DNA from: Candidatus Latescibacterota bacterium
Lineage (GTDB): Bacteria; Latescibacterota; UBA2968; GCA-2709665
Length of the DNA stretch: 64,000 nucleotides
Assembly (NCBI GenBank): GCA_963667175.2
Contig: CAXXXF010000016.1
Span: 352,001 to 416,000 of the forward strand
Reading direction: 5' to 3'
The position numbers were made by a program, and so were the translations under genes. Positions 37,728-60,379 of this stretch are shown here, piece by piece (the stretch's first letter is position 1; every line of letters starts with the position of its first letter). The notes under the pieces were generated by a model that was given only the letters and a program-made list of their open reading frames with translations, did not search any database and was not told where the DNA came from.

Positions 37728-38012
37728 TCACACCCGAGACATTGTCAAATGTTGTGGATAGCGTGGAATCGCGGAACGCCGTCCCCCTCGGTCGCTGCGC
37801 CACCTTGAGTGCCGTCTACCTTCACGGATCATTTCGCACCCGTGCCGCCGAAGGTTTTTCAGCAGTTCAACCCGCTTCAAGTTATCACGACCTTCTCCTC
37901 GATGATAGTCCTCGCCCGCCGCCTCCAAAGCTTCACGCCGGTTATATTCCAATGCTTCGGAGAGGGTTTCCGTGAGGCTGACAGTGAATGCGTCGGCCAT
38001 TCGGAAGTTCAT
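37728..38012 (-). pseudogene. Chimeric remnant: first 13 codons of the UvrD-like helicase fused to the 3' half of hicB, followed by truncated hicA
   Basis: MNFRMADAFTVSL matches helicase MNFRIADTFTDSL; ETLSEALEYNRREALEAAGEDYH matches HicB at 62103-62312; KRVELLKNLRRHGCEMIREGRRHS is HicA-like. Confidence 0.8.
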
Positions 38013-38049
38013 CTATGTGCTCACCGAAGGTCTATATCCCTGTACAGTT

Positions 38050-38712
38050 TCAGGTTGCAAGCAGGTTTCTGGAGGATTGACGTTCGAAAGACCCCCACGA
38101 ACAATAACAGCGCAAAGATACCTTGCGGAATTTTGGTGCAACCTTGGAGACGATGAGTTTCTCACGGGCCTGCCACATAGTATCGTGCAGGTTCTTGCTG
38201 TCATATCCGCCAAAAGTTGGAATCATCTTTAAATCCAGAAATCCTCGCGAAATTTGACTGCGTCCTCTCAGCTTGTTTTCTATCCAATAACCCTCCTCGG
38301 TAGGATGCCTAGGTAATATATGTCCGTTTCTAAAGTCCGAGTTCCAGCGAAAAAAGTCACTGGATATGCACTGAAACAGGCCTTCTGATACAGCAAAGAG
38401 ATCCAGGTCAGAACTTCGACCAAATGGAGCACCGAGTTTATACGGCGCCAATGACGATCCTAGGCGTGCGCTACCGACCAAGCTAATGTCTTTGGCGACA
38501 ACGCCAAGTTTCCAACCGAGCCACGTCCGCATCGACTCATATATTGCCGGACATTCTTGAAACGCATAGGGGATACCCTCGGAGAGCCATTGACGTGCTA
38601 TAGCGACTCGGTCGCGAAACTCACTCTGGCGCGAAACCGATTTCAATCGTTCCGCGGGCGGATAGCGATCAGATATTCCTGCCAATGATGAAGAGACCTC
38701 AAACGGCTTCAT
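38050..38712 (-). CDS. Putative Pol-beta-superfamily nucleotidyltransferase
   Basis: LVGSARLG...SDLDLFAVS (GS...DxD); start overlaps the transglycosylase stop by 14 bp. Confidence 0.6.
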   Translation of the reverse strand: MKPFEVSSSLAGISDRYPPAERLKSVSRQSEFRDRVAIARQWLSEGIPYAFQECPAIYESMRTWLGWKLGVVAKDISLVGSARLGSSLAPYKLGAPFGRSSDLDLFAVSEGLFQCISSDFFRWNSDFRNGHILPRHPTEEGYWIENKLRGRSQISRGFLDLKMIPTFGGYDSKNLHDTMWQAREKLIVSKVAPKFRKVSLRCYCSWGSFERQSSRNLLAT

Positions 38713-39304
38713 TGCACACTTCGGGAGTCAAGTAGCGCTTTCCCTCTGATCGATAATATCGCGCCAAAAGGTAGGCACTTCTTTGTTCTATTATGGTTAG
38801 CCGTTCGGCAGAGGCTTGCCTCGGCTCCGGATATTTTAGACGTGCGACTAAGTGTGCTGCACTGTACAAATCTGTCGATGAGGGGTTGATTTCCAGCAGG
38901 TTGCACGCCTGACGGAGGTTGTTCATTCTCCATCCGTAGTAAGCCACCCACAGATATAGGCCCGGAAGATCTTCTCGTGGGACGTAACGAGTTACCCGGA
39001 AAGCGAGTGCTATCTCGCGAGTTTTTCTCATGATGGTCGCGTCGTATCTCTTTGTAAGGACCCTGACAAGCTGCATTGCAATGGTGGAGCCCCCTTCCCG
39101 ACGCCCGCAGACGAAGGTCCGCCAAGCCGCGCGACCAAGCGCGATCGGATCGAACCCCGGATGGAAACGAAATCGGTGGTCTTCTCCCAGAATAAGCAAT
39201 GTGCACATCTGTCGGTTTGGCTGACCGACAGGATGGCTGTAGTATTCGCTCCGAACGAGGTCGATTTCCTTCTTCAGTTTCTTCCAATCACCATTGAAAT
39301 TCAT
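38699..39304 (-). CDS. Stand-alone GT51 (PBP transglycosylase) domain protein without membrane anchor
   Basis: EDHRFRFHPG, GGSTIAMQL, RKTRE, YLWVAYYG motifs; ATG 5 bp after the stop of the mod remnant. Confidence 0.75.
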   Translation of the reverse strand: MNFNGDWKKLKKEIDLVRSEYYSHPVGQPNRQMCTLLILGEDHRFRFHPGFDPIALGRAAWRTFVCGRREGGSTIAMQLVRVLTKRYDATIMRKTREIALAFRVTRYVPREDLPGLYLWVAYYGWRMNNLRQACNLLEINPSSTDLYSAAHLVARLKYPEPRQASAERLTIIEQRSAYLLARYYRSEGKRYLTPEVCNEAV

Positions 39305-39309
39305 TCCAA

Positions 39310-39519
39310 TCACATCCTGGACACCTTCATTACCTCGTCCCCAAGGTAAATCTACAGCCTTTACGGCAATCCGTCCTGATGACGGTTTGGGGAATTGTCG
39401 TGAGGTGTCGCTGTGACACGTATCCAACGTTTACCTGTTGATCTCGGCTTCGAGGGCGGTCTTGAGAGATTTATACGGTTCGATTGCGCCGAAGAAGTAT
39501 GCCTGGAGAACGAAGAAGC
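39310..39519 (-). pseudogene. Degenerate copy of the 3' end of the DNA methyltransferase gene
   Basis: Aligns to 57581-57789 (HSDTSRQFPKPSSGRIAVK...GDEVMKV); contains frameshifts. Confidence 0.88.
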
Positions 39520-39549
39520 AGGTTGGGTGACTATTGGATGCAACCCGTT

Positions 39550-40737
39550 CTATGCTTCGGTCGAGCGCATATCAAACGTCAACCTGACGTACCCACCCTT
39601 GTCGTCCTGAAAGAGATCAGGCTCGGTTCCATTAATGTCGAACATTGATTCTCGCATCACGGGCCACCCCCTACCCCGTTTCTCCATCAATCCTTTGACG
39701 ACCATGTTGTTCGCCATAGATTCGTTCCGGGATCGGGGATGGGCGCCAGCGCGAACACGCTCAACCGTCATGTGGTTTGGAAGCGTACCGGTACTCGTAA
39801 CGTCGACATGATCATCGTAAACCTCTAACAGGACATTCGAGCCGGTGATGGCATAGTCCCTGTGCACGACCGCGTTGACCAGCGCCTCCCTCAGTGCCGC
39901 TTCCGGTAAAGGGCCTCGGTCTTCTCGAAACAGATTTCTATAGGTCTCAAATCGCCCAAGCCCTTGGAACCATCCGACGGCACGTTGAACCTGCTCGTCC
40001 AAACGACCTTTGACATCAGCCACTTGTAACGTATTAGAAGCCCGGTCGTCACCTTCGTATGCGACGCATTGTATCCGAAAGCCGTGCGTTTGTGGGTAGC
40101 GCTGCGGTTCCTTGCCGAATGCCAGCACACCGTAGAGAGTGGGGTGCAAACCGTCTCCCAATTGTGCCACCACCCCGCGATTGCGGAGATCGTCAAAATT
40201 GTCAGGCTGAGGTTCTCCGAGAATATCGAGCCCGATCGCTTGCAAATACTCGCGAAAGCACTGGATATCGATATCCTCTGGTGTCGCAGCCTGAATCGGG
40301 CGTTCCTCGGTCATAATGTAACCGAAAGCGTTGTAGAGTTCCTGTAATTCGCTGGGTGATGGCTCGACGTTGCTGCGTTCCCGTCGGACCCAAACCCGGC
40401 CATCGTAGCACATCGGTTCGAAACTTCGCTGCCGAGGAATCTCAATCCAGTGTACCCAACCTTTCGGATGCTCATGCCACCCGCGACGTGCGGTTACCGG
40501 CGAGCTGCAACCCATTTTCAGGAAAGATGTCAACCTCTCCTGAACTCTTTCCACATCCTCTTTGACCCCCACAACTCCATGAGAAGGGTCGACGCCCAGC
40601 ATAATAACGCCGCCATCGGTGTTTGCAAATGCGCATATCGCTTTGCCGATCGCAGAAAGGTCGCCAGGGCCGCGTTTGAACTCGCTGTGCCGGTCCTCGC
40701 CAAGTTCGACCCGCTCAAGGGTGTTTAGCCAAACCAT
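39550..40737 (-). CDS. Schlafen/AlbA_2 + HATPase_c_4 (RecG-C-like) protein, copy 2
   Basis: GEDRHSEFKR, ICAFANTDGG, REALVNAVVHRDY, RSRN, MEKRGRG; paralogue of 53553-54731. Confidence 0.85.
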   Translation of the reverse strand: MVWLNTLERVELGEDRHSEFKRGPGDLSAIGKAICAFANTDGGVIMLGVDPSHGVVGVKEDVERVQERLTSFLKMGCSSPVTARRGWHEHPKGWVHWIEIPRQRSFEPMCYDGRVWVRRERSNVEPSPSELQELYNAFGYIMTEERPIQAATPEDIDIQCFREYLQAIGLDILGEPQPDNFDDLRNRGVVAQLGDGLHPTLYGVLAFGKEPQRYPQTHGFRIQCVAYEGDDRASNTLQVADVKGRLDEQVQRAVGWFQGLGRFETYRNLFREDRGPLPEAALREALVNAVVHRDYAITGSNVLLEVYDDHVDVTSTGTLPNHMTVERVRAGAHPRSRNESMANNMVVKGLMEKRGRGWPVMRESMFDINGTEPDLFQDDKGGYVRLTFDMRSTEA

Positions 40738-41024
40738 CAAACTTCCAATTCCTGATAACTCTTCAATGTGCTCATATTTCGCCACCATCCTGCCTCTACT
40801 GGTCACCAGCTACTGACGACTGTAACATCCGGCTCCCCGAAGATGCCAAAGAGTTTTCCCGTGCCGTGTTTTTATTGGCTTCGGCCATATGGAGGTCTAC
40901 GTTCATACGAGTCTTTAGAACCGTGACGCGACCGAAATCTCTGTAATCCAAAGCGTGGGCATCCCAACTAGAGCGCGGGAGATCAACAGGTCGATTTCAG
41001 CGCATGTTTGTTCCTGACCTTGGC

Positions 41025-41732
41025 CTATTGATTAACTTGGGATGGGATGCCTTCCAGTAGTCTTAGCCAGTGTTGAAAATGCGGGCAAGTGGAACAAATC
41101 GTGTTGATGCCGATCTCACTCGCCACAAACGTACCCATCAATGGCTTCTGATACCCAGGTACGAGCGCTTCGATACGCTTGGAAGGTGCTGTGTCTGGCG
41201 AGTCATCAATCTCTTCCGGACCGGCAAATTGGTGTCTGATTTCCTCAAATGCCGTTGTCAGTTCAGGAAACCCTATTCCACGAGCGAACGTGTCACAATC
41301 ACTGAAGAGCATTGCTTCGAACTCGTGCATTGCAACGTAAGGGATAAAACGCCTCCGATCGAAATTTGGGCCCATTCCGATGGCGATGTCATCCAGCAGG
41401 GCATCTTCGACTGTCTTTGCTTTTTCCGACGAAGACTCCTGACCCGTAGCTTGCAGGCGACCCGGCCACGCTTTCGAACGGGTATTGGGCATTGCGTAGT
41501 AGTCCACCATTGTAGTCGCAAAGCTTCCCGGATCTTCTTTCAAGTGTCTTGAAATGTCTCTACGCACACTGTTCCACGGCCTGATTCCACCGCGCCTGTG
41601 CCGTTGGCGGGCGTTTCCAACCAGACGTGCGCTGACTCCGACAAACCCGAAATCGTACAAATGGGGCGCCAGGAGTTCATTGACGAATTGCTCTTCTGAC
41701 TGGCCTTCAACATGGACTAGCAACCGTGTCAT
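41025..41732 (-). CDS. DUF4276 family (TOPRIM-like) protein
   Basis: VHVEGQSEEQF, TTMVDYY, HEFEAMLFSD, PEEIDD...PSKRI, YQK, CPHF..W; ATGA-coupled to the ATPase. Confidence 0.8.
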   Translation of the reverse strand: MTRLLVHVEGQSEEQFVNELLAPHLYDFGFVGVSARLVGNARQRHRRGGIRPWNSVRRDISRHLKEDPGSFATTMVDYYAMPNTRSKAWPGRLQATGQESSSEKAKTVEDALLDDIAIGMGPNFDRRRFIPYVAMHEFEAMLFSDCDTFARGIGFPELTTAFEEIRHQFAGPEEIDDSPDTAPSKRIEALVPGYQKPLMGTFVASEIGINTICSTCPHFQHWLRLLEGIPSQVNQ

Positions 41733-42826
41733 GACGAAGATCCGCGACCCGTGTCCTCCTTTACAGGACGCCCACCGAGTTCGTTCTTTTCCCATAGCTG
41801 ACCGAGGCTGTATTCTTCAAGCCACGCCGCGAGGCTCCTGTTGTCCAATCTCTGGAACGTTGTCGCACGGTTTACGCGATCCGCGACAATTACGTCCCTT
41901 GGATCGAAATGATCCAACAGCACCGGCGACTGTGTTGCAACGATGATTTGGGATTCCACGGATGCCTGCTTCAGCATGGAAGCGAGAAGTGTCGTGGCGT
42001 AAGGATGGAGTCCAAGCTCCGGTTCGTCCAGAAGAACCACGGGCGGCCGCAGCGAAGTCGGCTGAAGAAGAAGCGTGGCAAGGGCCATAAACCGCAGTGT
42101 TCCGTCGGACAGTGAGGACGCGTCGAAGTACGCGTCCGATCCCGAGTGGCGCCACTCAAGACGAATCTTGTCTTCGTTCAATGCCATCGGTTCGAGTGCG
42201 AAGTCTTCGAAAAATGGCGCCGCCAGCTGGATGGCACGTTGAATCTGAGTGTATGAATCGTCGTGTTTGTTTTTCAGTAAGAACAGAAACGCCGAGAGGT
42301 TCGACCCGTCCGTACGAAGACTGCGATTGTCGTTGACATCGGAGGTCGTCTTCAATGGCGACGTGGAGCCTGCATCGTGAAAATGGTAGGTTTGCCAACT
42401 CTCAATTTGCCGGCCAACCTGGTGCGGAAAGGGAAAGTTGGGTGAGTTAGCCCAATTCACATCCTCCGAATTGCCTCTGACTGGGGCTGACGGATGGAAC
42501 ATCAGATTATTTATGTAGAGTCCATCAGAATCGTCACTGCTCAGTTCCATTGCAAATCCGGATCGGTCTCGGTCGAAAGAGACTTGCACATCGAGTGTTG
42601 GGGTGACTTTTGCGCCGAAATGCAGAATCCGGTTTGCTCCGCCCGCCTCTCTGACATAGCGCTCCAACCGTCCTTGGATGCAGGCGCGCAGAAACGAGAA
42701 CACTTCAATAAGGTTTGACTTTCCTGATCCGTTGGCCCCAATCAACACATTTAGAGGACGCAACTGAAGCATGGCATCGGCAATACTCTTAAAGCCTATA
42801 ACGAAGATTCCGTCGAGTTTGGTCAT
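41729..42826 (-). CDS. AAA_21/ABC-type ATPase
   Basis: GFKSI, GANGSGKSN, LSDGTLR, LDEPELGLHP, TQSP. Confidence 0.88.
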   Translation of the reverse strand: MTKLDGIFVIGFKSIADAMLQLRPLNVLIGANGSGKSNLIEVFSFLRACIQGRLERYVREAGGANRILHFGAKVTPTLDVQVSFDRDRSGFAMELSSDDSDGLYINNLMFHPSAPVRGNSEDVNWANSPNFPFPHQVGRQIESWQTYHFHDAGSTSPLKTTSDVNDNRSLRTDGSNLSAFLFLLKNKHDDSYTQIQRAIQLAAPFFEDFALEPMALNEDKIRLEWRHSGSDAYFDASSLSDGTLRFMALATLLLQPTSLRPPVVLLDEPELGLHPYATTLLASMLKQASVESQIIVATQSPVLLDHFDPRDVIVADRVNRATTFQRLDNRSLAAWLEEYSLGQLWEKNELGGRPVKEDTGRGSSS

Positions 42827-42834: not shown

Positions 42835-42977
42835 TTATACCCGAAACACCTTCATCACCTCGTCGCCAAGGTGATTTATTACCTTCACAGCAATCCTACC
42901 GGACGTTGGTTTGGCGAAGGGCCGGGATGTGTCGCTATGGAGCGTTTCCCAGGCTTCCTGATTGATTTCGGCCTTAA
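42835..42977 (-). pseudogene. Copy of the 3' end of the DNA methyltransferase gene, truncated by IS1380
   Basis: Translates KAEINQEAWETLHSDTSRPFAKPTSGRIAVKVINHLGDEVMKVFRV*, one residue different from the intact gene despite many synonymous changes. Confidence 0.92.
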
Positions 42978-44122
42978 CCTCAATGTGAAATTAATCAGGC
43001 GGCTTTCTGTAGGGCATTGCAATTTCGCGGTATTGTTTTTCGGTCTGCTTGTTGCGTTGGAGTCGCAGGGTGAGTCGTCCTTTTGGTCGGATGAAGTAGC
43101 CTGCGCGGTTGATGAGTTCGAACCGGAGTTTGCGTATGGATTTGAGGGCCCACCTGCCTGCTGCAGGCAGGTCGGTTGGTACTTTTCAAGGTGCGATTGC
43201 GTTGTGTCAGTCCGGTATCGATTTCGAAGTTGACCAGTCGGAGGGTGTAGGCATCCCCCAAGGTTTCTTCGACCTGGGTAAACACGTCCTTTAGAAACGG
43301 GATGGAGGCGCTGCCGTCATTGACGTTGTCGGGACGGTTGTGCACGCCCAGAAAGTGACCACTGTCGGCCAGGTAGGCGGTAATCGGATAGTAACTGGGC
43401 ACTTTGCGATGGTGCGGATTATAGCCACGACGGGCGCCATCGACGTGCTTTCCCGCGCACAAGACCGTGCCGTCCACGTCGATGGTCAACGTGCGGGAGC
43501 GCAACGCCTTGATCCTATCAGCCCGTTGATAAAGTCCATCCGGTCTACGTCCGGCCCTTGTGACCGAATGACGGCGTTGCGCTCCCTCCCCGAATCCAGG
43601 GATTCGCGTCGGTCGCGCGCCTTGTCTTCGGCCACAATGACTCGGCCTCGCCTGCGGAGCGACTTTTTCAACGGACTGCTATGGGCAACAACGTCGGCGT
43701 TGAGGGCTTTCAGGGCATTGAGACCCTCGTCGGGAAACCGTCTCAGAAACGTGCTCATGCTGCGGGGGGTCGGTAAATCCGTCAGACCGCAAAACCGCGC
43801 CAACGCCCACACTGCCTAGGTGACGGCGCAATTGCCTGTTCCAATCCACGTTTCGCAAATATCGCGTCAACGGTTCCAGACCCGCATACGAGGTGAGGCC
43901 TTCACCGGTGAATTCCATCGTCAAATCGTCATTGACACGCGCGTGCAAATCTGCTTTCTTTCTCACTGTACGTGGCCTTTCGTTTTGGGTTAATTGGGTG
44001 TTTCGTCGCTTCCCAATATACCAAAATGGAAGGCCTTTTCCTATTGAAAAATATAGACTTATTCGCCACTTCGCTTCGTCTTCAATAACCCGAAATCCAT
44101 CAACATTATTTTCGCATTGAGG
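42978..44122 (-). mobile_element. Degraded IS1380-family element
   Basis: Terminal IRs CCTCAATGTGAAATTAAT / CCTCAATGCGAAAATAAT (16/18) flanked by TTAA on both sides; transposase fragments LTSYAGL, LTIDVDGT, GYNPHH...SYYP; internal deletions. Confidence 0.85.
43519..43678. mobile_element. 160-bp MITE inserted in the IS1380 transposase
   Basis: IRs CAGCCCGTTGATAAAGTC / GACTTTTTCAACGGACTG; CTAT target duplication at 43515-43518 and 43679-43682; removal restores the frame ADVVAHRIKALRSRTLTIDVDG. Confidence 0.88.
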
Positions 44123-44529
44123 TTAAACGGCCCTAATTGTCAGAGAAATAATCATCGCACCCATTAGAATATTACCCTATTCCAGAGGCCAAAAATACCT
44201 ACACGGGATTTATGATCCCCTAATCGGCCGGATTTAGACCGCACTTGGATGAGATCCAGGGGTATTCCAAGCCTCTGGGTCTTATTTTTCAGGATCATTA
44301 CTTGAGTCCACTCCGAAAAGTCAAAATCGGCTCCGACAAGGTCGTAAATCACACCTGTCCAAAATCGGTTTCAGTCTTGGACAGCATCTGGTTCACTTCC
44401 GCGAAGCAATCCCTCGACCAAGATTGCCTGAGATTCACAAAGTGCTTATTTCACGGGCTTATTGAGACGGAAACAGCACAATTATGGCCGCTGGAAACGT
44501 CACCTTGTTCTTGGACAGCATTGCGCAGA

Positions 44530-44639
44530 CGATGGCAAACCTGGTTTTCATTATCCGGGTCAAACTCGTCCAAAATCGCCTATTGTAGCCATTTTTCGAA
44601 CCTTATCTCTGGGAATCCGACGGTTCTTGGACAGCAGTG
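44530..44639. repeat. About 110-bp direct repeat, copy 1
   Basis: CGATGGCAA.CCTGGTTTTC.TTATCCG...TTTTCGAACCT.ATCTCTG..AATCC.ACGGTTCTTG.ACAGCAGTG, shared with 45385-45493. Confidence 0.8.
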
Positions 44640-44751
44640 GTCGTAAATGGTGTTTTAGCCAGAAGCAAATCGAAACAAGAATTAATATAAAACTATGATA
44701 ATTAAATATTTATGTGGATATGGATAATTTCGAAAAATGGTCGTACCTGAC

Positions 44752-45138
44752 CTAAATTGGTGGAAATTGCGGAAATCTCACTTTTCGGAGTGGACTCTTA
44801 CTTGCTTTAATAAGGCCCACCACATTTTCAAGTAATTGCGTAATGGAAGCGGTACAGTTCTGCCATGCTATTGAATAGCTAACTTCATGAAATTCTCCTT
44901 CAGGTAACTTAACCTTGTATGAGAATCTGTAGCGTGCCTCACGTCCTTTTATCTCTTCTAACTTGAGACTGACCTCGTGTATCATATCGCGACTCCTTAT
45001 TTTTGGATTTATGTTTCCTGTCCTATTGGCATAAAGCGTCCTTTCCATTATTTCAATCGCAAGGATGATTTGCTTAAACCGTCCCTCTTTTAATGTCCCA
45101 CCTGCACAAAAACGGATTTGATAAAATACGAAATTCAC
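44752..45138 (-). CDS. Small AT-rich hypothetical protein (possibly a fragment)
   Basis: 128-aa ORF in a very AT-rich patch between the direct repeats; no recognised motif. Confidence 0.35.
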   Translation of the reverse strand: MNFVFYQIRFCAGGTLKEGRFKQIILAIEIMERTLYANRTGNINPKIRSRDMIHEVSLKLEEIKGREARYRFSYKVKLPEGEFHEVSYSIAWQNCTASITQLLENVVGLIKASKSPLRKVRFPQFPPI

Positions 45139-45207
45139 GAAATAAATGGCTGGAAAAATCGTCCACAGCCATTGACGAAACGAGTCGGTCCTTCCTTGGC
45201 GAAGACT

Positions 45208-45362
45208 TTCATCCTGAGGAGGCCCTCAGGCCGACGAATGATCTACTGCAGCATCGGATCATCCCAGTGAGATTTGCACGTGTCGATACTTGAGAGGCAG
45301 CACGCCCGCCTGCAGCGCGGGACGGCAGCGGCGAAAGATTCTTAGACTCCGCTCAGAATGAC
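45208..45362. repeat. Palindromic REP/MITE-like element
   Basis: Arms TTCATCCTGAG...GAATGATCT and AGATTCTT...GCTCAGAATGAC are imperfect inverted repeats; internal hairpin CCTGAGG-AGGC-CCTCAGG. Confidence 0.5.
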
Positions 45363-45384
45363 TTGCGTTGCAACAAACACGAAC

Positions 45385-45493
45385 CGATGGCAACCTGGTT
45401 TTCGTTATCCGAGTCAATCCCGTACAAGATCGCGAATTGAAGTCACTTTTCGAACCTCATCTCTGAAAATCCCACGGTTCTTGAACAGCAGTG
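45385..45493. repeat. About 110-bp direct repeat, copy 2
   Basis: Aligns with 44530-44639. Confidence 0.8.
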
Positions 45494-45575
45494 AAATTAC
45501 CTTTTATTTATTGAAATTCTAACCCGCGAGGTTGGGCGATGCATTTACCAATTATGGATGTTCCCAATGATGAGT

Positions 45576-47913: not shown

Positions 47914-48363
47914 TCAGACTACGGCTGGATGCGTGTGAATAATGCAAGCCGCTATCATGTCACCAATGAGAGCGGCTTGATCGGAATCGCCCGGCGGAAG
48001 CCCTACAATTTCACTGTGAGACGGATCGGCATCGTATTCCCCTTCGGCATCCAAGGGCTTATTGACGAAGCGAAGGCTTTCGAGTTCACTCGAGATGTAC
48101 TGTTTTGTTGCGCCGACATTCAATTCTGCAAGGCGACCACGTTTCTTCATATCCAACCGAGAGAGTCGCCTTACCTCTGCAAGTTGGCCGTCCTTAGTGC
48201 AATCGCGAATACACTCAAGCCAGTTAACGGACACGCCGGTATCATCGGGCCGATGTGAGCGCAGCCGGAATTCAGATCCATCCACCTTTCCATCCTCGCG
48301 TATGCTTGTAGGCTTAGCATATCGGACCACGTGATGCCCATCCGGCAGATTGTCGTCAGTCAT
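47914..48363 (-). CDS. Hypothetical protein, possible ADP-ribosyltransferase-like fold
   Basis: VVRY...FRLR...GVSVNW...HSEI pattern; ATGA-coupled to the upstream gene. Confidence 0.55.
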   Translation of the reverse strand: MTDDNLPDGHHVVRYAKPTSIREDGKVDGSEFRLRSHRPDDTGVSVNWLECIRDCTKDGQLAEVRRLSRLDMKKRGRLAELNVGATKQYISSELESLRFVNKPLDAEGEYDADPSHSEIVGLPPGDSDQAALIGDMIAACIIHTHPAVV

Positions 48364-49924: not shown

Positions 49925-50180
49925 GAAAGTCTATTGCTCCTTAAGTACTCAAATATGTGCAAAGGGCGATGGCTTGAAAAGACCAACCCGACATGCCCGT
50001 ACAAAACTTCGTCTTCCTGATGCTCGACGCAGTGTGATATCATGACGGACTAAGACACAAACAACCTGGCTCGACGCTTTCTCGCGTTCTACGTCATTTC
50101 CGTTACACACCCGCCAAATGTTAGACGGAGATTTGGGTGGTCGTCGTTGTGCAGTCACTGACTCGCGGCTATTTCAAGGA

Positions 50181-53156: not shown

Positions 53157-53258
53157 GGGTCGCGCTATTTTAGTGACAAATGAACCGCTTGCGGCTAGTG
53201 CACCACGTAGCTCGGAAATCCCGATGCATGTGTTCGCCGGTTCCTGTCAGTTATTGGT

Positions 53259-53467
53259 CTATACCCGAAACACCTTCATCACCTCGTCCCCGAGGTGGTC
53301 GATTACCTTTGCCTCAATCTGGCCGGACATTGGTTTGGCGAAAGGCCGGCATGTGTCGCTACGGAGCGGTTACCAGGCTTCTTGGTTTATTTCGGCTTTA
53401 AGGGTGTTCTTGAGCAACTTAAAGGGGTCGTCTGCGTCGAGAGAGTAGGCCTGGCGAACGAAGAAGC
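53259..53467 (-). pseudogene. Degenerate copy of the 3' end of the DNA methyltransferase gene
   Basis: FFVRQAYSLDADDPFKLLKNTLKAEINQEAW*PLRSDTCRPFAKPMSGQIEAKVIDHLGDEVMKVFRV*; colinear with 57581-57789, one internal stop. Confidence 0.92.
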
Positions 53468-53552
53468 AACGCTTGTCTTCGGCGGCATTAACAGAATAGG
53501 GGCCTAAGAAGCAGGTAGGGTGACTGTTGGATGCAATTCTCTTATTCTTCGG

Positions 53553-54731
53553 TCAGGTGCAGAGATCAAACGTCACCCTGACGTACCCACCTTTGTCGTC
53601 TTGCATTAAATCGGGCTCGGTTCCGTTGAAGTCGAGCATAGACTTGCGCATCACGGGCCATCCCCGACCCCGCTGCTCCATGAATCCCTTGGCAACCATA
53701 ATGTTTGCCATCAGTTCGTTCCGCGATCGTGGATGGGCTCCCGCACGGACGCTCTCAACCGTCATATGATTTGGCAGCGTACCGGGACTACTCACGTCGA
53801 TGTGCTCAGAGAAGACTTCAAGAAGCACTCGTGAACCGGTGATCGCGTAATCCCTATGCACAACGGCGTTGACTAACGCTTCCCTGAGCGCTGCTTCAGG
53901 CAAAAGCCAACGGTCTCTCCTGGTCAGTCCTCGATACGACTCGAATCGACCAAGACCGTGGAACCAACCGACGGCACGTCTGACCTGTTCATCCAATCGA
54001 CCAGTCGCGTCTGCTACCTGAAGCGTATTCGAAGCCCGGTCCTTGCCTTCATAAGCGACGCATTCTATCCGAAAACTGTGCGTTTGTGGGTAGCGCTGCG
54101 GTTCCTTGCCGAATGCCAGCACACCGTAGAGGGTGGGGTGCAAACCGTCTCCCAACTGTGCCACCACCCCCCGATTACGGAGGTCGTCCACGTCGTCCGG
54201 CTGAGGCTCTCCCAGAACGTCGAGTCCAATTGCCTGCAAATATTCGCGAAAGCACTGGAGATCAATTTGCTCCGGTGTTGCAGCCTGAATCGGGCGTTCC
54301 TCGGTCATAATGTAGCCGAAAGCGTTGTAGAGTTCCTGTAATTCGCTGGCCGACGGCTCGACGTTGCTGCGTTCGCGTCGGACCCAAACACGGCCATCGT
54401 AGCGCATCGGCTCGAAACTTCGCTGACGGGGCACTTCGATCCAGTGAATCCATCCGTTAGGGTCTTCATGACGTCCACCTTGGGCAGAAACCGGCGTACT
54501 GCATCCGGTTTGGAGAAACGCCGTCAATCGCTCTTGTACCCTTTCCGCATCCTCTTTGACCCCGACGATTTCCTGGGATTTATTTACACCAATGACGATA
54601 AGTCCTCCCTCGGTGTTTGCGAATGCGCACATCGCCCTGCCGATTGGAGACAGGTCGCCAGGGCCGCGTTTGAACTCGGTGTGCCGATCCTCGCCCAATT
54701 CGACTCGCCTAAGGATGTTTAGCCAATCCAT
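53553..54731 (-). CDS. Schlafen/AlbA_2 + HATPase_c_4 (RecG-C-like) protein, copy 1
   Basis: GEDRHTEFKR, CAFANTEGG, REALVNAVVHRDY, SPGTLP, RSRN, MEQRGRG. Confidence 0.85.
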   Translation of the reverse strand: MDWLNILRRVELGEDRHTEFKRGPGDLSPIGRAMCAFANTEGGLIVIGVNKSQEIVGVKEDAERVQERLTAFLQTGCSTPVSAQGGRHEDPNGWIHWIEVPRQRSFEPMRYDGRVWVRRERSNVEPSASELQELYNAFGYIMTEERPIQAATPEQIDLQCFREYLQAIGLDVLGEPQPDDVDDLRNRGVVAQLGDGLHPTLYGVLAFGKEPQRYPQTHSFRIECVAYEGKDRASNTLQVADATGRLDEQVRRAVGWFHGLGRFESYRGLTRRDRWLLPEAALREALVNAVVHRDYAITGSRVLLEVFSEHIDVSSPGTLPNHMTVESVRAGAHPRSRNELMANIMVAKGFMEQRGRGWPVMRKSMLDFNGTEPDLMQDDKGGYVRVTFDLCT

Positions 54732-54742
54732 ATTGAACGACC

Positions 54743-57520
54743 TCAAAAACCGTACTTCAATCGGCGTAGACGAAACGCATCATCGCCTCCATCAACGGTC
54801 CTGACAATAGAGTCCCGGACGGACGGTTCCTCAATGGCCCCCGAATGCACGACACGGCCACGATTTGCAGTAGCGTCAAGTTGAATTACCTGATCCGCGT
54901 CACCATTAACGACAATATCGGCATTGTGCGTTGCGACGATGATTTGTCTTCGACCCTTTAGCCGTTTAAGTGCGGGGAGAACCGTATCAGATAGAAACCG
55001 GTTGTCAAGTTCATCCTCGGGCTGGTCGATAACCAATGGACGTTCATCGCTAGTCTCAAGCAGCAGCGATAGCAGCAAGCTAACTCGCTGCCCTCCTGAG
55101 AGGTCGTCCAAACGCCGATGGCGTCCATCATCCATCCTTAGTTCCAATAAGTAATGGTCGCTGCAGCGAATGGCCGCAAGGTACCTCTGCTTTGTACGCG
55201 TCAACTGTTCTCGGAATGTAGATTGAACAGCGGCACTCATGCCGACTTCATTCAACGTGTCGTCGCTCAAATGACTAAGCAATTCGATCGGAGACGGTCT
55301 GCTCTGATTCTCCAATTCGTTCCACCACCTTGTGATCCCTCTCTTGCTCAAATCTCTTAGAAAGCGGTCCAGTGGCCCGCGACTGCCGTCGTCCACGCGA
55401 CGGGCCGAAATCCGCCCATCGAATTCTGCGAAGATCGTCTCGGTCACCCGGTCAAATGCAGCCCTCTGTTCCCCAACGAGCCCTTCTCTTTCATCGAGTA
55501 GCCCCTGGAAAGTTCGTTCAGCCTCAGAAAGCTCTTTACGTACCTTATTCAGATTCGCCTCGTAACTCTCTCTGAGCGAAGACTGGACGTTTAATGCCTG
55601 CAACTCCTTAATCTGTGACCCGTCAAGTCCACGCTTCGCCAGAGCTCGATCAACCTCGGTGTGAATGCCCTGCTCCTGAAGCTTCAGTGTCTCCAATATC
55701 GACAATGTTTTTGCATCCCAATCTCTCAGTTCAACTTTCGCAGATCTGATGTGTTCTCGGATTCGATTCCATGCTTCCTGCAACTCCTCACTCCTCACTC
55801 CTACGCCCGCGTTATCCACTGATCCTACAAAATAGTCGCCGGATTTGGGCAAACTGAAACCGTCCGTAACTCCTATTGCACGATCGAGATGGGTTCCCAG
55901 ATCTTCAGACACCTCACAGCATTCCTGCCATTGACGAATCGCACGTGCGACTTCGTGCAGCTTCTCTACACCTGCCTCTGAGAATGCTTCAAGTTTATTG
56001 GCGGCGATAACTGTCCGCTCATATGCCTGCTCAGCCTCGGAGAGAACATCATCGAGTTCCGCCAAGTGTTTCGCCTGGCGGTCAAGTTCCTTGTCGATCG
56101 CGCTTAATCGAGTCTGACGCTCCACGATTCTTGACATCTGTGACGGAACAAGCCTCGTGAGAATCTCTTCCACGGCACTTGGTTCTTGTGCGAGCCGATG
56201 CAGTTCATTCTGTGCGTAAAATACCGCGGGCCACCTCTCACGATCCGGTGCGGTAGGATCCTGGCCCGGACAATCGAGTGAGACCTCAGCCGAACCAGCG
56301 AGAAACCTTTCCTTGCCACGTGCTTCTACCTGCTTTCTGATGCCGTCGTCTTGTGGCAATGCCGCATCGGTGTATAGTCGCAGTCCATCCAAAAACGTGC
56401 TCTTGCCCGTCATGCTGCCGCCGATAATGCATGTTAGATCAGGGCTGAGGTGGAAACTCGTGGCTGGCTCATTTTCTGCAGTTGTACCAAAAAACGACGC
56501 CCGCCCGTCGATTGTGACCGTCTTGAGCCAAGGCCGTTGGTTAATGGTGACATCGGGCGGGTTTGCAATCTCAACTAGACCGCCACTTGCGTCGCGTTCG
56601 TAACCGATGCGCACCCGCGAGTCGCTAGCGATAAAGGCCTGTCGAAGAGCCTCGACTCTTGGGCTCGCAAGCTTCAGCCACGTGTGACGCTTACCGATTT
56701 CGTCCACCGAATAGGCGTCGCTTCCGTGAAAAAACGCCAAGTGATTCGCAGCCATCCCTTCGGGCAACCACTCACGGTTTTTCATTGCGTCGTCGGCAAG
56801 TTTTCCGTCGCCAAGTTCAAGCCCAGTCACTTCACTATGGGGGAAGTTCTTTAGAACCTGCGCGTTGAGTGCTCCGAGAAGACCCTTATTGTTATCGATA
56901 TGGGGCGCAAGCGTAATGTAGTTCCATTCAGGCTGCCCACATTCGTCCAAGGGGCACTCTTGACGATGGAATTCACGCAGATCTCGGAAAACCTCGTCGG
57001 CGTTTTTGCTGGAGATTTGTAGGTCCTTGCCCCGCCATGGCGACACGCCACCCATGGCCAAATAAAACGCTTTCATATAACCATCACGACCGACCTCAGG
57101 ATCAAAGAGAAAAATGAGATGCAATCCTCGCTTTCCCTGTTTGAGTGACGGCTCGAAGCCGGGAAAGACAGCATATATCTTCTCCCTGAAGGGTTTTCCG
57201 TCATCGTCAACGCCAACGTTCCACTCATCTACGATTTGCCAGACTGCGCTCGTATCGACTCCTGTTTCAACACACGATGAATGCGGTGTAATGCCCAATA
57301 CTCGTACATCCCGAGCGGCCGCATTCTGTAGAAATATCCTAGCATATGCCTTAAGTGTCTCCTTGGATACGGGTCGACGAAATTTCACGCCGTTAGGAAC
57401 CTTCGCCCTGTCACCATCAATGTCATCTATTGTATGGATATGTAAGTCCGCCTTGAACCACCGTGCGCCCGGGACGTCCCGGTGCCAGTTGTCGGCCTCC
57501 TGCCGTTTAAAGAAATCCAT
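54743..57520 (-). CDS. PHP phosphoesterase + coiled-coil ATPase fusion (Ppl/TrlF-like)
   Basis: WFKADLHIHT, ITPH, GSDAY PHP motifs; GGSMTGKST, LSGGQR, IDQPEDELD, THNA. Confidence 0.85.
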   Translation of the reverse strand: MDFFKRQEADNWHRDVPGARWFKADLHIHTIDDIDGDRAKVPNGVKFRRPVSKETLKAYARIFLQNAAARDVRVLGITPHSSCVETGVDTSAVWQIVDEWNVGVDDDGKPFREKIYAVFPGFEPSLKQGKRGLHLIFLFDPEVGRDGYMKAFYLAMGGVSPWRGKDLQISSKNADEVFRDLREFHRQECPLDECGQPEWNYITLAPHIDNNKGLLGALNAQVLKNFPHSEVTGLELGDGKLADDAMKNREWLPEGMAANHLAFFHGSDAYSVDEIGKRHTWLKLASPRVEALRQAFIASDSRVRIGYERDASGGLVEIANPPDVTINQRPWLKTVTIDGRASFFGTTAENEPATSFHLSPDLTCIIGGSMTGKSTFLDGLRLYTDAALPQDDGIRKQVEARGKERFLAGSAEVSLDCPGQDPTAPDRERWPAVFYAQNELHRLAQEPSAVEEILTRLVPSQMSRIVERQTRLSAIDKELDRQAKHLAELDDVLSEAEQAYERTVIAANKLEAFSEAGVEKLHEVARAIRQWQECCEVSEDLGTHLDRAIGVTDGFSLPKSGDYFVGSVDNAGVGVRSEELQEAWNRIREHIRSAKVELRDWDAKTLSILETLKLQEQGIHTEVDRALAKRGLDGSQIKELQALNVQSSLRESYEANLNKVRKELSEAERTFQGLLDEREGLVGEQRAAFDRVTETIFAEFDGRISARRVDDGSRGPLDRFLRDLSKRGITRWWNELENQSRPSPIELLSHLSDDTLNEVGMSAAVQSTFREQLTRTKQRYLAAIRCSDHYLLELRMDDGRHRRLDDLSGGQRVSLLLSLLLETSDERPLVIDQPEDELDNRFLSDTVLPALKRLKGRRQIIVATHNADIVVNGDADQVIQLDATANRGRVVHSGAIEEPSVRDSIVRTVDGGDDAFRLRRLKYGF

Positions 57521-57580
57521 TGTGCATTCTCCGAGCGGAATTGGCACTCGTGGTTAAGTCGCTTAGCTTGCTGAGAGACA

Positions 57581-60379
57581 TCACACCCGAAACACCTTCA
57601 TCACCTCGTCGCCAAGGTGATTGATTACCTTTACCGCGATTCTGCCTGATTTCGGTTTTGCGAATGGCCGGGATGTGTCGCTGTGAAGGGTTTCCCAAGC
57701 TTCCTGGTTGATTTCGGCCTTGAGGGTTGTCTTGAGAGACTTGTACGGATCGTTCGCACCGAGGAAGTAGGCCTGGCGAACGAAGAAGCTCTCCTCGTTG
57801 TAGTCAGTGTCCACAAACCAGCAGGCGATTCCGTCGGCGTTATCGCTTCGGACCTCGCCGGTGTTGGGGTGGAAAACATCAACTCCATTGACTTTGACCT
57901 TGATTTGACCGTCTTCCGCGTCGAGGATGTCGATGTCCGGCTCCCCGAAGATGACAAATAGATTTCCTTTTCCCGTGTTCTTAAGGTCTTCGGCCATGTG
58001 GAGGTCGGCATTCATGCGCGCTTTGAGAACGGGGATTCGGCCAGCTTTGTTGAAGTCCGATGCGTGAGCATCGTAGTTGAAGGCACAGGCGATCAACACG
58101 TCGAAATCAGCATCGGCGGCCTCCCGGGCGGCCTGTACCAGATCGGGGCGGGAGACCGTACCGAATTCGGGCCCAACAAAGATACCAGCGCGTTTCTCCG
58201 AGCCGTATGACGCGTTGCCTTCAGCATACGTCCCCTCGGCGCAGACGAGGTCACCGGGCCAGGGTCTCATCCCAGAGAAATAAATCCGGTCTTCTTTGTG
58301 CGCCTGCTGGACGCCCGCGTTTTTGAGATTATCCAGGATCACCTCAGCGAAGTCCGGCTTTTCTCCGTAGCCGAGTTTCCCCTCGGCGACATTGTCTATC
58401 AATGCATCGTCTTCGTCGACACCGAGTAGTCGGTGCGGCGAGAGACTCTCGACCGTAAACGGTCCCGCTACCCTCACTTTCTTCTTGTCCTCGTACGGCT
58501 TGTCGTAAAGATACTCGGAATCGGCCTTTGCAGTGATCGAAGCGTCAATTTCCTTCTGCCGTGCGATGCGCTGTTCCCAGAAAGCAGTGAGAATCGGCTT
58601 AGTGGCCGGTGGCCAGTCGGGTGGCAGCTCTCGCGGGACCTCCCATTCTTCGAGCGTCCTCGCCTGGCCACCCGTTGCTGACAGCCGTCCGCGGAGTTTC
58701 GCGAGGTTCTCCTCATGTTTCTCCCAGATTACATCGATTTCGGCGTTGTTGGCGATGGACCTGAGCGTGATGTGAGGAACGCGTTCGTACACGAATCCCT
58801 GGCGAACGTCGTTATAAGTGGGCCGCTCCGGGGGAGCTTTGCGGGAGAGCGCGGCTTCCTTCAATTGCCCTTCTCTACTATCTGCAAGCAAATAATACGG
58901 ATAGCGTGCGCCCATGATGCGGGCGCGGGCCAGTGCCAGGGAGACTCGCGAGGTATCGATGGTGATCCAGCGGCGACCCCACTGCTCGGCGACGTAGGCC
59001 GTGGTGCCGGAGCCACAGGTGGGATCGAGGACTAAATCACCCGGGTCGCTCGTCATAAGTATACAGCGTTGGACTACCTTTCGTAGAGTTTGTACAACAT
59101 ACAGCTTTTCGTCACCGAATCCACTAATCCGTGTATCAAGCCACGTGGCATCAAGGCGAAAATAGGGGGCATCATTGAAATAGCGAATATATTCAGGCGT
59201 GTTGCCAAAACGCATAATTCGATTAGCGTTTTGGAGCCGGCACATGCCAGTGTAGTTTGTCTTCCATCCTCCCTTTCGTGGTGCATTTATCTTATAGCCC
59301 TCCATCTCAAACGGAAATATCGTGGATTCGCTCCCAGTCTGAGATTTCAGGTTGAAATGACCAAAAAGCCGATCTCCATTCAAATCATCAGGGTTAGTGA
59401 TCCTTCTGACCTCGCCCTTATTCGACATAGCGAACTTGTACTGTAGTGCGCCCGCCTCGCCTTGCACCCTTTCGCGAAATAAACGACGAAATTTCAGTCG
59501 TGACTTATCTTTTGCGAACCACAAAATATAATCAAAGGTATCGTCAACATACCTTCCACCAAGTCCAGTTGTCTTGGCGAACTTCAAAACGACAATACAG
59601 TTCTCTTCACCGAAGATCTCGTCCATCAATGCTCGCATCCGATGCACGTTATCGTCACCAATCTGCATAAATAGCGACCCACTGTCTATCAGCAAATCCC
59701 GCGCAACTGTCAGCCGATCCCGCAGATACGTCAAATACGAATGAATCCCATCCCGCCATGTATCCCGAAACGCCTTCACCTGTTCCGGTTCGCGAGTGAT
59801 GTGATCGGCCTTGCCGTCCTTGACGTCGCGGCTGGTCGTTGACCACTGGAAGTTGGAGTTGAACTTGATGCCGTAGGGCGGGTCGATGTAGATGCACTGC
59901 ACCTTGCCGCGCAGCCCCTCCCGCTCCGCCAGCGACGCCATTACCTGCAAGCTGTCGCCGAGAATCATTCGATTCGACCAATTGGCGTCGTGTTGGTAGA
60001 ACTCCGTCTGGGCGTCAGCGCTCGGCAAACCATTGAAATCCGCGAAAAGGTCGGCTTGTGCGCCGTCGCCGTTCTCCTGCTCCGCTTCCGTCTGCCTAGT
60101 GCGCTGCCGCAGGTCGTCGATCAATACCTTCGGTTGTACCTTCTCTTGGATAAAAAGCGGTGGCGCTTGCACGACAAGATCAGACCAATTCTGTTCATCC
60201 TTCCCCCGCCAGACAAGCTGGGGGTCAAGATCCCGGTTGCGACGCGCGTACGCGACCTGGATCGGATTGCGGTCGTCTTCCGCCATCACCGCCTGATACT
60301 CAGCCGTGGGAATATTCTTCCGCGATGCGTCCTGGTGCCGCAGGGTTTCGACAGTCTTGGTCGATTTTCGTTTCGCCAT
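57581..60379 (-). CDS. Site-specific adenine DNA methyltransferase (type III Mod-like, beta class)
   Basis: YIDPPYG catalytic motif precedes LVLDPTCGSGTT SAM-binding motif; 932 aa. Confidence 0.92.
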   Translation of the reverse strand: MAKRKSTKTVETLRHQDASRKNIPTAEYQAVMAEDDRNPIQVAYARRNRDLDPQLVWRGKDEQNWSDLVVQAPPLFIQEKVQPKVLIDDLRQRTRQTEAEQENGDGAQADLFADFNGLPSADAQTEFYQHDANWSNRMILGDSLQVMASLAEREGLRGKVQCIYIDPPYGIKFNSNFQWSTTSRDVKDGKADHITREPEQVKAFRDTWRDGIHSYLTYLRDRLTVARDLLIDSGSLFMQIGDDNVHRMRALMDEIFGEENCIVVLKFAKTTGLGGRYVDDTFDYILWFAKDKSRLKFRRLFRERVQGEAGALQYKFAMSNKGEVRRITNPDDLNGDRLFGHFNLKSQTGSESTIFPFEMEGYKINAPRKGGWKTNYTGMCRLQNANRIMRFGNTPEYIRYFNDAPYFRLDATWLDTRISGFGDEKLYVVQTLRKVVQRCILMTSDPGDLVLDPTCGSGTTAYVAEQWGRRWITIDTSRVSLALARARIMGARYPYYLLADSREGQLKEAALSRKAPPERPTYNDVRQGFVYERVPHITLRSIANNAEIDVIWEKHEENLAKLRGRLSATGGQARTLEEWEVPRELPPDWPPATKPILTAFWEQRIARQKEIDASITAKADSEYLYDKPYEDKKKVRVAGPFTVESLSPHRLLGVDEDDALIDNVAEGKLGYGEKPDFAEVILDNLKNAGVQQAHKEDRIYFSGMRPWPGDLVCAEGTYAEGNASYGSEKRAGIFVGPEFGTVSRPDLVQAAREAADADFDVLIACAFNYDAHASDFNKAGRIPVLKARMNADLHMAEDLKNTGKGNLFVIFGEPDIDILDAEDGQIKVKVNGVDVFHPNTGEVRSDNADGIACWFVDTDYNEESFFVRQAYFLGANDPYKSLKTTLKAEINQEAWETLHSDTSRPFAKPKSGRIAVKVINHLGDEVMKVFRV

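Follow-up and report, generated by a model that had tools for sequence, protein, structure and literature searches.

The 64,000-nt stretch of DNA analysed here (hereafter the window; positions 352,001 to 416,000 of contig CAXXXF010000016.1, assembly GCA_963667175.2, from a Candidatus Latescibacterota bacterium) carries a defence island in which at least nine different anti-virus gene modules are stacked between the genes of one operon, res, mod and uvrD, and between detached ends of these same genes. We regard it as reasonably probable that the operon belongs to a widespread Type III-like restriction-modification (R-M)/helicase family, the joints of which are filled with defence cargo through recombination between differently loaded copies, with one homologous and one illegitimate end to the event. 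The positions of all features are on the scale of the window, past the end of which the island continues: it spans from a tRNA-Met gene (34923-34999, plus strand) to about 67.4 kb on that scale, and all its genes, like the stubs and fragments described below, lie on the minus strand. Genes were named from Pfam, PADLOC and NCBIfam (the Pfam scan took 28 + 15 open reading frames (ORFs) in or beside the island), and a repeat scan and self-BLAST were run on 30-64 kb. Relatives are referred to by genome (G) or locus (L) numbers and sequencing runs by X numbers.

The first scaffold gene is res, of which the window holds the 3' part (63436-64000); the gene extends past the window to 66516 (3436-6516 in L001) and encodes 1026 aa with the Pfam domains ResIII and RE_endonuc. 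Over residues 6-1003 it matches the BPTD_3080 family of NCBIfam (NF046055) with 1353.3 bits, against a cut-off of 800. The second scaffold gene, mod (57581-60379; 932 aa), encodes an N6_N4 methyltransferase (PF01555; 1366 bits with the PADLOC model MTase_III PDLC03632), and the third, uvrD (45576-47645; 689 aa), a UvrD-like helicase. A gene for a Cas4-like PD-(D/E)XK nuclease lies at 35086-35895. In relatives G009 and G013 this gene overlaps the 3' end of uvrD, so that the 9.7-kb block at 45576-35895, the lower half of the array, occupies a third joint in the window, between uvrD and the Cas4-like gene. The block is bounded by a 30-nt repeat of the uvrD end: 45583-45612 recurs at 35829-35858, inside the Cas4-like gene. 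The real scaffold is, then, res-mod-uvrD, with the Cas4-like gene added in this genus: a Type III-like R-M/helicase operon with three joints. An initial annotation of the window had parsed the array as one scaffold occurring twice (mod, a first slot, an AlbA gene, a mod remnant, a second slot, uvrD). That parse does not hold, AlbA being cargo and the two halves lying in different joints of the scaffold. An Hma identity of the host operon was considered and dropped: no Hma model matched res, mod or uvrD, though the library holds HmaA (PDLC00659, a SNF2 helicase). BREX and DISARM models likewise gave no match to these three genes among the PADLOC matches listed.

The 3' end of mod (its last 140-230 nt) is present four times: once in the intact gene (57581-57789) and three times as a decayed stub. 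The initial annotation had pointed to these repeats, and all four copies were recovered by the repeat scan, by self-BLAST of 30-64 kb and with a profile of 66 Mod proteins (i-E 1e-9 to 4e-27 for the three stubs, each of which reaches the stop codon). The stub at 53 kb (53262-53492) covers Mod residues 854-930 with one frame break and has a TAG stop codon at 53261-53259; over 53263-53467 it is 79.5% identical to intact mod (205 nt, E 2e-46). The stub at 42 kb (42836-42981; Mod 883-930) retains an open frame and a TAA stop codon; its identity is 87.6% to intact mod over 42836-42977 (137 nt, E 4e-43) and 92% to the corresponding intact end in G009. The stub at 39 kb (39310-39523; Mod 861-930) has two frame breaks, a TGA stop codon at 39312-39310, and 76.3% identity to intact mod over 39309-39519 (211 nt, E 1e-37). 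The intact mod ends nearest to the three stubs all come from the same genus, at 92%, 85% and 79.5%; these identities would fit decaying scars of different ages.

Ends of the other two scaffold genes are found as well. A res 3' stub (61758-62090; 333 nt in open frame, residues 900-1010 of the Res profile, i-E 9e-59) is 91% identical to the end of the res gene itself. The uvrD 5' remnant that had been placed near 37977-38012 is indeed there, as a stub at 37975-38012 that consists of the uvrD ATG and 12 further codons and is joined to the 3' part of a hicB gene; with 38 nt at 84% identity the match is a short one (E 1.6e-4 by blastn, i-E 0.73 with the profile). A further, inner fragment of mod (40738-40969, about 230 nt; Mod 766-818 and the first part of the insert that marks a long mod variant) is fused to the 5' end of the second of two AlbA genes and is 82% identical to G009 mod at 16115-16348; it derives from the long mod variant, as do the first ~23 codons of that AlbA gene. 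In the long variant ~80-150 aa are inserted in frame at Mod 818/824, for a total of about 1090 aa; it is found in G009 (L092 15422-18691), G024, G026, L009 and L080. The res stub, the inner mod fragment, the 30-nt uvrD-end repeat, a split hicBA pair and the res gene itself come in addition to what the initial annotation had listed. A search of the 5.52-Mb genome found the scaffold-gene stub repeats confined to the island.

Seams, relatives and the exchange of cargo

Forty-one genomes of the window's order were searched, many of which show extra mod-end matches, and 13 loci from 12 of the order's genomes were compared. Mod-end stubs occur in 8 of these 13 loci. Each extends to the stop codon, with inner ends at Mod 819, 852, 883, 886, 894, 894, 902 and 914; termini at the gene's own end together with varied inner ends are what would be expected from an upstream homologous crossover plus a random downstream joint. 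Wherever the modules on either side of a stub can both be named, they differ: Hachiman and PDC-S05 in L009, an ABC ATPase and a transglycosylase pair in G025, HipA_2+DUF3037 and AAA_16 in G017. Both island flanks are common to the window, G007, G009 and G013, while the cargo differs. The closest relative, G009, has in order res, a DUF1828 gene, hicBA, the long mod variant, a 57-aa 3' stub of a Ppl-like gene, AlbA, a mod stub (852-930), three small genes, uvrD and the Cas4-like gene, and no reverse transcriptase (RT) gene. In G007 the order is mod stub, HEC-01, mod fragment, res, AlbA-like gene, mod 5' fragment, mod, RT_UG5, uvrD, GmrSD-type gene, uvrD 3' stub and Cas4-like gene; in G013 it is res, AlbA-like gene, mod, transglycosylase, 220-aa and GmrSD-type genes, uvrD and Cas4-like gene, with no stubs.

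From these comparisons the window island reads as a mosaic of segments with different closest relatives. It is 92-99% identical to G009 for res, the DUF1828 gene, hicB, the three small genes and uvrD, 94% identical to G007 from the stub end through the RT gene (50101-53467), and ~77% identical to G002, G004 and G007 for the HEC-01 unit. The intact mod gene is itself mosaic: G002 is nearest for its 5' end (87%) and G009 for its 3' end (90%), and the central recognition part (~59116-59600) had no DNA match in any relative, as would be expected for recognition-domain swapping.

One cassette can be resolved at the level of its seams. The gene for an RT_UG5-nitrilase of the defence-associated RT (DRT) class (50181-53156; 991 aa, 377 bits) lies in a cassette that reaches from 53258 down to about 50100, behind the 53-kb mod stub. 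Up to a point about 25 nt short of its stop codon, this stub is ~80% identical to the intact mod end of G007; across the stop, 29 of 29 nt are identical, the TAG included, and identity then stays at 91-99% on to 50101. The 26-nt block at 53288-53263 (corresponding to 57610-57585 in intact mod) is identical in nearly all copies of the genus. In G009 the stop codon of its own stub is followed by ~58 other bases, and homology with the window picks up again at 50027. The RT cassette is missing in a 96%-alike contig of run X12, where 50027 is joined to 53263; run X1 represents the form with the cassette, one of its contigs bridging the right end (49731-50549) with 3 differences. In this one case the left switch lies within the final ~25 nt of the mod stub; at the right end (50027-50108) there is no shared homology. 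The gain or loss of this cassette thus had one end in a detached mod stub, within its conserved tail, and another that lacks extended homology. An exact micro-homology at the right joint was considered and rejected: GTGTA is common to G007 and G009 at the switch, but the next 74 nt resemble neither well. The other seams have at most 2-5 nt common to both parents; 5 nt are common to the uvrD-stub homology and the hicB homology, and those of hicA and the res stub abut. These comparisons support the view that the conserved ends of scaffold genes are where cargo is exchanged, and that a stub may still act as an anchor. The proposal of the initial annotation that conserved gene ends serve as homology anchors for module exchange is borne out to this extent, by the RT switch in the 53-kb stub, by G009 and X12, which lack the cassette from 53263 on, by the stubs in relatives and by the scatter of cargo described below.

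We envisage the following course of events. Recombination with copies of the operon that carry other loads, from related bacteria, would bring in cargo. One end of the event would lie in conserved scaffold coding sequence, which supplies the homology (this step presumably depending on RecA), and the other would be a non-homologous or micro-homology joint. The process would be homology-facilitated illegitimate recombination, and its outcome would be the same as that of insertion with long target duplication. The incoming piece would carry its own complete gene end, so that one intact mod, res and uvrD would persist, and the old gene end of the resident would be left further downstream as a stub, followed as before by the old cargo. 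Products without an intact mod would presumably be selected against by an active restriction enzyme. Repeated rounds, tandem joining, at least once, to a second loaded copy close to debris of insertion sequences (IS) and miniature inverted-repeat transposable elements (MITEs), and trimming of the scaffold genes of that copy could together stack at least nine modules; the stubs would decay, yet would be reusable as anchors while still similar. The lower block at 42981-38012, bounded by a mod end and a uvrD start and with a transposase fragment and the 168-nt repeat of many copies next to it, looks like the trimmed rest of such a second loaded copy fused in tandem.

That same block, from mod end to uvrD start, also resembles an alternative allele of the mod-uvrD joint, as if the array were an assembly chimera of versions of the locus from co-occurring strains. 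Such an artefact would suit the figures for the genome (95% completeness, 4.75% contamination) and the content of run X12, which holds not only the 96%-alike strain without the RT cassette but also a contig that lacks the 9.7-kb insert, the Cas4-like gene following directly on uvrD, and whose loose end reads window 35806-35835. We nevertheless consider it improbable. Contigs of X1, X2 and X12, runs among which the source sample may figure, bridge most seams of the lower half and the right end of the RT cassette: uvrD stub to hicB 3' part, 39-kb stub to the second AlbA gene, 5' end of that gene to the mod fragment, HEC-01A to the 42-kb stub, and uvrD stop to AT-rich DNA. Most of these contigs show 0-10 differences; that of X1 over the 5' end of the second AlbA gene has 34 in 733 nt. 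The repeats, at most 88% alike, are too diverged to mislead an assembler, there is unique DNA at the seams (the transposase fragment and the hicB 3' part), and the relatives assembled as single contigs (G007, G009, G017, G026 and G034) have stubs of the same kinds. One X2 contig tracks the window from the end of HEC-01B to 40967, beyond which it consists of unrelated AT-rich DNA. It leaves the window exactly where the inner mod fragment starts, so this is another natural arrangement of that seam.

Two genes for AlbA_2 + HATPase_c_4 proteins stand ahead of mod stubs, the first at 53553-54746 (397 aa) and the second, which has no Ppl-like partner and begins with the mod-derived codons, at 39550-40806; they are 79.6% identical over 1227 nt. 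AlbA is cargo and no part of the scaffold: in this genus it travels paired with the Ppl-like ATPase, and distant HATPase_c_4/AlbA-like genes lie in the res-mod joint elsewhere. The two units share the same junction with their stubs, as they would if the segment from mod 3' end to uvrD 5' end, AlbA included, had been copied in place and its cargo swapped later. This local duplication is, in our judgement, very improbable: the three stubs span 48, 70 and 77 codons and have different closest relatives, the two halves of the array lie in different scaffold joints, and each AlbA unit is about as near to the G009 unit (85-86% aa; 86% for the first protein) as to the other, so that they would have diverged in different lineages.

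The shared junction has a second possible meaning. It is common to both window copies and G009 despite 18-30% divergence, so the unit travels as one piece, and a unit of stub, HEC-01 and mod fragment is likewise found in G000, G002 and G007 at two different positions (upstream of res in G002 and G007), while G004 has HEC-01 with a mod 3' stub ahead of res. Cassettes might accordingly move as circles: a module with one copy of the mod end would loop out between mod-end repeats and re-enter another mod end by a single Campbell-type crossover, a true integron-like cycle without integrase with the same end product (intact mod, cargo, stub, older cargo). We think this unlikely. The looping-out that the initial annotation had suggested finds no counterpart in the contigs of four runs, which hold no joint of two mod-end copies, no circle junction and no stub-to-stub deletion, a weak point in that contigs drop rare forms; the repeats, 76-88% alike over 140-210 nt, are poor substrates; and block transfer after a single founding event explains the shared junction equally well.

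The operon family in other phyla

A scan of one genome per species found at least 654 loci of this operon family; the counts below refer to the best 80, from many phyla. Relatives of Mod number more than 8000 at E 1e-50 or better, the best 120 being 71-83% identical. In the 80 loci the order is res, mod and then a gene for a UvrD-like helicase, on a single strand, res preceding mod in all 71 loci that hold both. The joint between res and mod is tight (at most 139 nt) in 29 of the 71 and holds cargo (169-2819 nt) in 42. A full-length uvrD homologue lies downstream of mod in 43 of the 80 loci, with a tight joint (5-46 nt) in 8 and cargo of 164-5293 nt in 35; in 14 further loci 10 kb of downstream DNA contain no full-length uvrD start, one of them (L016) having a frameshifted full-length copy. 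Cargo ORFs mostly share the strand of the operon (65 of 71 in the mod-uvrD joint, 49 of 64 in the res-mod joint).

The cargo of these joints consists for the most part of known or candidate defence genes. In the mod-uvrD joint, 63 ORFs from 33 loci were compared with PADLOC (E ≤ 1e-5), 8 short or opposite-strand ORFs of the 71 having been dropped beforehand, and 27 of the 33 loci gave at least one match. The kinds of cargo include Hachiman, IetAS (4 loci), SIR2-HerA, RT_UG14 (DRT), AbiP2, OLD/PARIS-like ATPases, LmuB-like and TIR proteins, PD-T4-3, HEC-01, HEC-07, PDC-M32, PDC-M38 and PDC-S05. The res-mod joint, for which 47 of 64 ORFs were submitted, holds Fic (7 loci), HATPase_c_4 (6 loci), Bro-N (4 loci), YhcG, NYN, GmrSD_N, DUF1828 and PIN (2 loci each) and NTase/HEPN proteins. 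Tabulation of the genes that follow mod in homologues and relatives, as proposed in the initial annotation, thus gives a content that varies rather than an invariant one, and stubs that recur. On a FastTree tree of 28 Mod proteins, 14 cargo labels need 17 changes (minimum 13, shuffled mean 20), and the four IetAS loci alone need four. Such scatter of cargo type over the tree suggests that cargo turns over much faster than the scaffold diverges, with the caveat that mod itself is mosaic. Close homologues of the window's AlbA genes were absent from the 80 loci, where identities reached only 22-36%, so the unit of AlbA and stub is traceable within the genus alone.

Searched with scaffold profiles (E ≤ 1e-3), the 80 loci yield detached mod ends in L009, L058, L065 and L070, a res end in L051, and uvrD starts in L005, L009, L037 and perhaps L007. 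In L009 the uvrD start stub abuts the mod end stub, between Hachiman and the PDC-S05 gene. The bare three genes are found without cargo on a conjugative plasmid of Pseudomonas avellanae, where RefSeq names them BPTD_3080 family restriction endonuclease, site-specific DNA-methyltransferase and 3'-5' exonuclease. The mod family occurs on 36 plasmid records, 10 of them conjugative, and plasmids are a possible entry route for cargo. In four loci a scaffold gene is split by an insert of 1.1-1.9 kb without duplication: mod at residue ~871 in L020 (12601-14459), uvrD at ~450 in L050 (11580-12740), and mod at ~432 in G017 (L103 11695-12888) and ~392 in G034 (L096 10458-11545). These inserts are probably IS or other mobile elements.

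The last 17 residues of Mod are invariant across phyla. Among the 34 of 73 sequences with the stop codon in register, which were used for a test by codon position, third codon positions vary, with an entropy of ~1-1.8 bits. A DNA-level recombination site at the mod end was rejected on this ground: the anchor would be ordinary protein-constrained coding sequence, which only rather close relatives share at the similarity that recombination needs. The same result bears on site-specific insertion, in which an unseen recombinase or transposase would recognise a DNA site at the ends of scaffold genes. The cargo of the window does begin close behind a mod stop codon in 4 of 4 cases: 33 nt on for the Ppl-like gene, 102 nt for the RT gene, 8 nt for HEC-01A and 5 nt for the in-frame ATG of the transglycosylase gene. 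(Of the gaps first noted, those of 5, 8 and ~100 bp stand; that of 60 bp is the one of 33 nt.) A DDE transposase fragment (43504-42995) moreover adjoins the 42-kb stub. There is, however, no DNA site conserved across phyla, and the inner ends of the stubs vary; no integrase domain was found in the 28 + 15 ORFs scanned with Pfam, the small ORFs of the debris zone around the DDE fragment being only partly covered; no transposase besides the DDE fragment turned up among these 43 ORFs; and no inverted repeats flank the cargo, the repeat scan having found only two inverted-repeat pairs, neither of them at a border. Site-specific insertion consequently seems to us the least probable of the explanations considered.

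Several observations weigh against exchange between differently loaded copies as the origin of the array. The RT cassette is the only one with parents near enough to place a crossover, and its right joint is inexact: 50028-50101 is unlike either relative, at ~60% to G009. Detached stubs occur in only 7-8 of the 80 diverse loci, so most exchange would be scarless or the scars would be lost fast, and the 8 of 13 among the relatives is not an unbiased rate, these loci having been chosen for strong mod matches. Hitch-hiking of flanks across phyla is weak, with uvrD 5' identity at 0.735 in pairs with the same cargo and 0.699 in others (sd 0.05). Public contigs of at least 95% identity leave the upper half unsupported, none covering 51.5-57.5 kb except the bin with the stub. 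Since run X12 holds a second, 96%-alike strain, a mixed-strain assembly is possible at the seams that contigs do not bridge.

A bolder version would make the scaffold-gene ends (the 26-nt mod block and the res and uvrD ends) an integrase-free capture system that anchors foreign DNA from any carrier of the operon, with restriction selecting for a rebuilt mod and each capture adding cargo and leaving a reusable scar: a general route to 'embedded' defence genes. We hold this to be conceivable, on balance rather doubtful. If true, such operons would be cross-phylum exchange platforms for immunity genes.

Cargo modules and surroundings of the island

The names that the initial annotation had given to the cargo largely stand (mod, PHP-ATPase, AlbA/HATPase, RT-nitrilase, TIGR04255, AAA with DUF4276, transglycosylase); the 'NTase' beside the transglycosylase gene is a 220-aa protein with no match in Pfam, PADLOC or NCBIfam. 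In the res-mod joint lies first a gene for a DUF1828 protein, PADLOC candidate PDC-M24B (62532-63401), which is 99% identical (aa) to that of G009 at the same place and 85% to that of G002, and is found in the res-mod joint of L016 and L070 as well. Behind it, at 62089-62312, comes hicB (62312-62103; 96% aa to G009 hicB) with the first 6 codons of hicA (62106-62089), which is cut by the res stub. A hicB 3' part with a decayed hicA is found at 37728-37979, 91% identical to the 62-kb copy over 117 nt. The joint further holds a nucleotidyltransferase gene (PDC-S09-like, with a weak MntA match) together with that of a 257-aa protein without known family (60534-61685).

The mod-uvrD joint begins with a TrlF-family/Ppl-like PHP-ATPase gene (54743-57547; 934 aa, NCBIfam TrlF family at 368 bits against a cut-off of 350, the Ppl match being partial), paired with the first AlbA gene. 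The overlapping Ppl-like and AlbA pair (53553-57547 in the window) recurs in G002 (L098 1-3082) and G026 (L094 157-3967), one distant pair at 24-31% aa being included in this count; its recurrence suggests a two-gene system instead of a single-gene Ppl. The RT cassette and, separate from it, a three-gene module (47914-49924) follow: a TIGR04255 protein (263 aa, 72.8 bits) and proteins of 280 and 149 aa, the two smaller of the module matching no family. These had at first been taken for one operon. They are two modules: G009 has the three small genes alone (L092 11384-13394, 92-98% aa), and G007 has the RT gene alone.

The third joint holds HEC-01A (an AAA_21 ATPase) and HEC-01B (DUF4276) at 41025-42826, then the second AlbA gene, then a gene for a transglycosylase-domain protein (probable start 39304) and that of the 220-aa protein (together 38050-39304), and last a gene for a GmrSD-type enzyme, HEC-06/BrxU-like (35888-37591; 567 aa), which is 89% identical (aa) to those of G007, in the joint between uvrD and the Cas4-like gene, and G013, in the mod-uvrD joint. 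The pair of glycosyltransferase-51 (peptidoglycan transglycosylase) and 220-aa protein occurs in the mod-uvrD joint of three genomes at 53-64% aa, among them G013 (L099 14997-16323) and G025 (L111 9609-10887), and may be regarded as an unusual candidate defence pair. Together with the TIGR04255 three-gene module and the Ppl-like and AlbA pair it makes up the candidate new defence genes of the island.

The tRNA-Met gene forms the lower border of the island, where G+C drops from 0.63 to 0.52; within the island G+C is 0.42-0.59, against ~0.60 genome-wide. Between res and the upper border, at 66518-67450 (L001 6518-7450), there are 2-3 small ORFs of 144-154 aa with no family match. The debris zone between uvrD and the 42-kb mod stub (42995-45575) consists of AT-rich DNA with a 110-nt direct repeat pair, a copy of an interspersed repeat of ~168 nt, and the DDE transposase fragment. 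The interspersed repeat (43514-43684) carries terminal inverted repeats and is present more than 100 times in the genome. Since 43515-43680 is missing from contigs of runs X2 and X3, the insertion at this place is polymorphic; read depth over the repeat is 30-200x, against 3-11x around it.

Comparison with known systems

The nearest entry for the host operon is the BPTD_3080 family (NF046055): the score of res, the order and sizes of the genes and their partners agree between the window, the 80 loci and the annotated plasmid, with a mod gene of ~930 aa directly downstream of res. The helicase and the cargo joints appear in no description found. A full-text literature search on the name of the res family gave no paper, and none was found on the operon family or on stub-marked stacking of cargo, in a search without subscription journals and bioRxiv supplements.

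Homology-facilitated illegitimate recombination is reportedly known from naturally transformable bacteria, through laboratory transformation assays said to go back to de Vries and Wackernagel 2002 and Prudhomme et al. 2002. The likeness lies in the one homologous anchor and the joint at few shared bases, as at the RT cassette and the other seams; the difference is that the process is known from the laboratory. Our literature search met no report of its building defence arrays.

With integrons the island shares the stacking, in one direction and behind a fixed point, of defence or accessory cassettes without promoters. Unlike them it has no intI, no attI or attC and no sign of excision: there are no attC-type structured repeats at the cassette borders, which are coding stubs of mod, res and uvrD, and the 'site' is coding sequence that decays once detached. 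The term 'integron-like', used in the initial annotation with the remark that attC sites and an integrase were missing, therefore holds as a loose analogy, the anchor being conserved at the level of protein and not of DNA.

Closer parallels are offered by two known kinds of arrangement. Payne, Hughes, Fineran and Jackson 2024 (10.1101/2024.01.29.577857) describe defence systems embedded in operons of the Hma, BREX, DISARM and Type I R-M kinds and, in the main text, leave the cause open. As there, the extra defence genes here lie between the genes of a host operon and in the same orientation, and HEC-01 and HEC-06, which are named in that text, are cargo in the window; the host here is Type III-like, and not one of those four. 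The filters given in that text (each host gene once, no pseudogene, at most 3 embedded genes per joint) would have excluded stub-bearing arrays such as this one, and the words 'recombination' and 'remnant' are absent from it. Insertion with long target duplication, for which Furuta, Abe and Kobayashi 2010 (PMC2853133) cite Nobusato et al. 2000 as the founding paper, involves R-M units flanked, in the account given there, by repeats of 46-423 bp with ~90-100% identity. Shared with the present case are direct repeats far longer than the target duplications of transposons, derived from the target, often the 3' end of a gene, and with no mobility gene. Direct repeats of more than 30 bp that are single-copy in an insert-free genome are found here around the Ppl-like gene with the first AlbA gene (mod 57585-57789 and stub 53263-53467), around the DUF1828 gene with hicB (res end and res stub), and around the 9.7-kb block, for which G009 and the loose end of the X12 contig, with uvrD joined straight to the Cas4-like gene, provide the insert-free comparison. 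In the cases of Furuta et al. the R-M unit is the insert, as far as that account goes; here the R-M operon serves as target for a series of events that insert other defence modules, and identity between the repeats has fallen to 76-91%.

The widespread res-mod-UvrD-like operon is a third kind of place in which to look for new defence genes, and the island with its same-site relatives provides evidence at the level of seams for a simple embedding route, anchored in the ends of host genes and leaving datable stubs. The island combines both of these known kinds: embedded defence systems and insertion with long target duplication.

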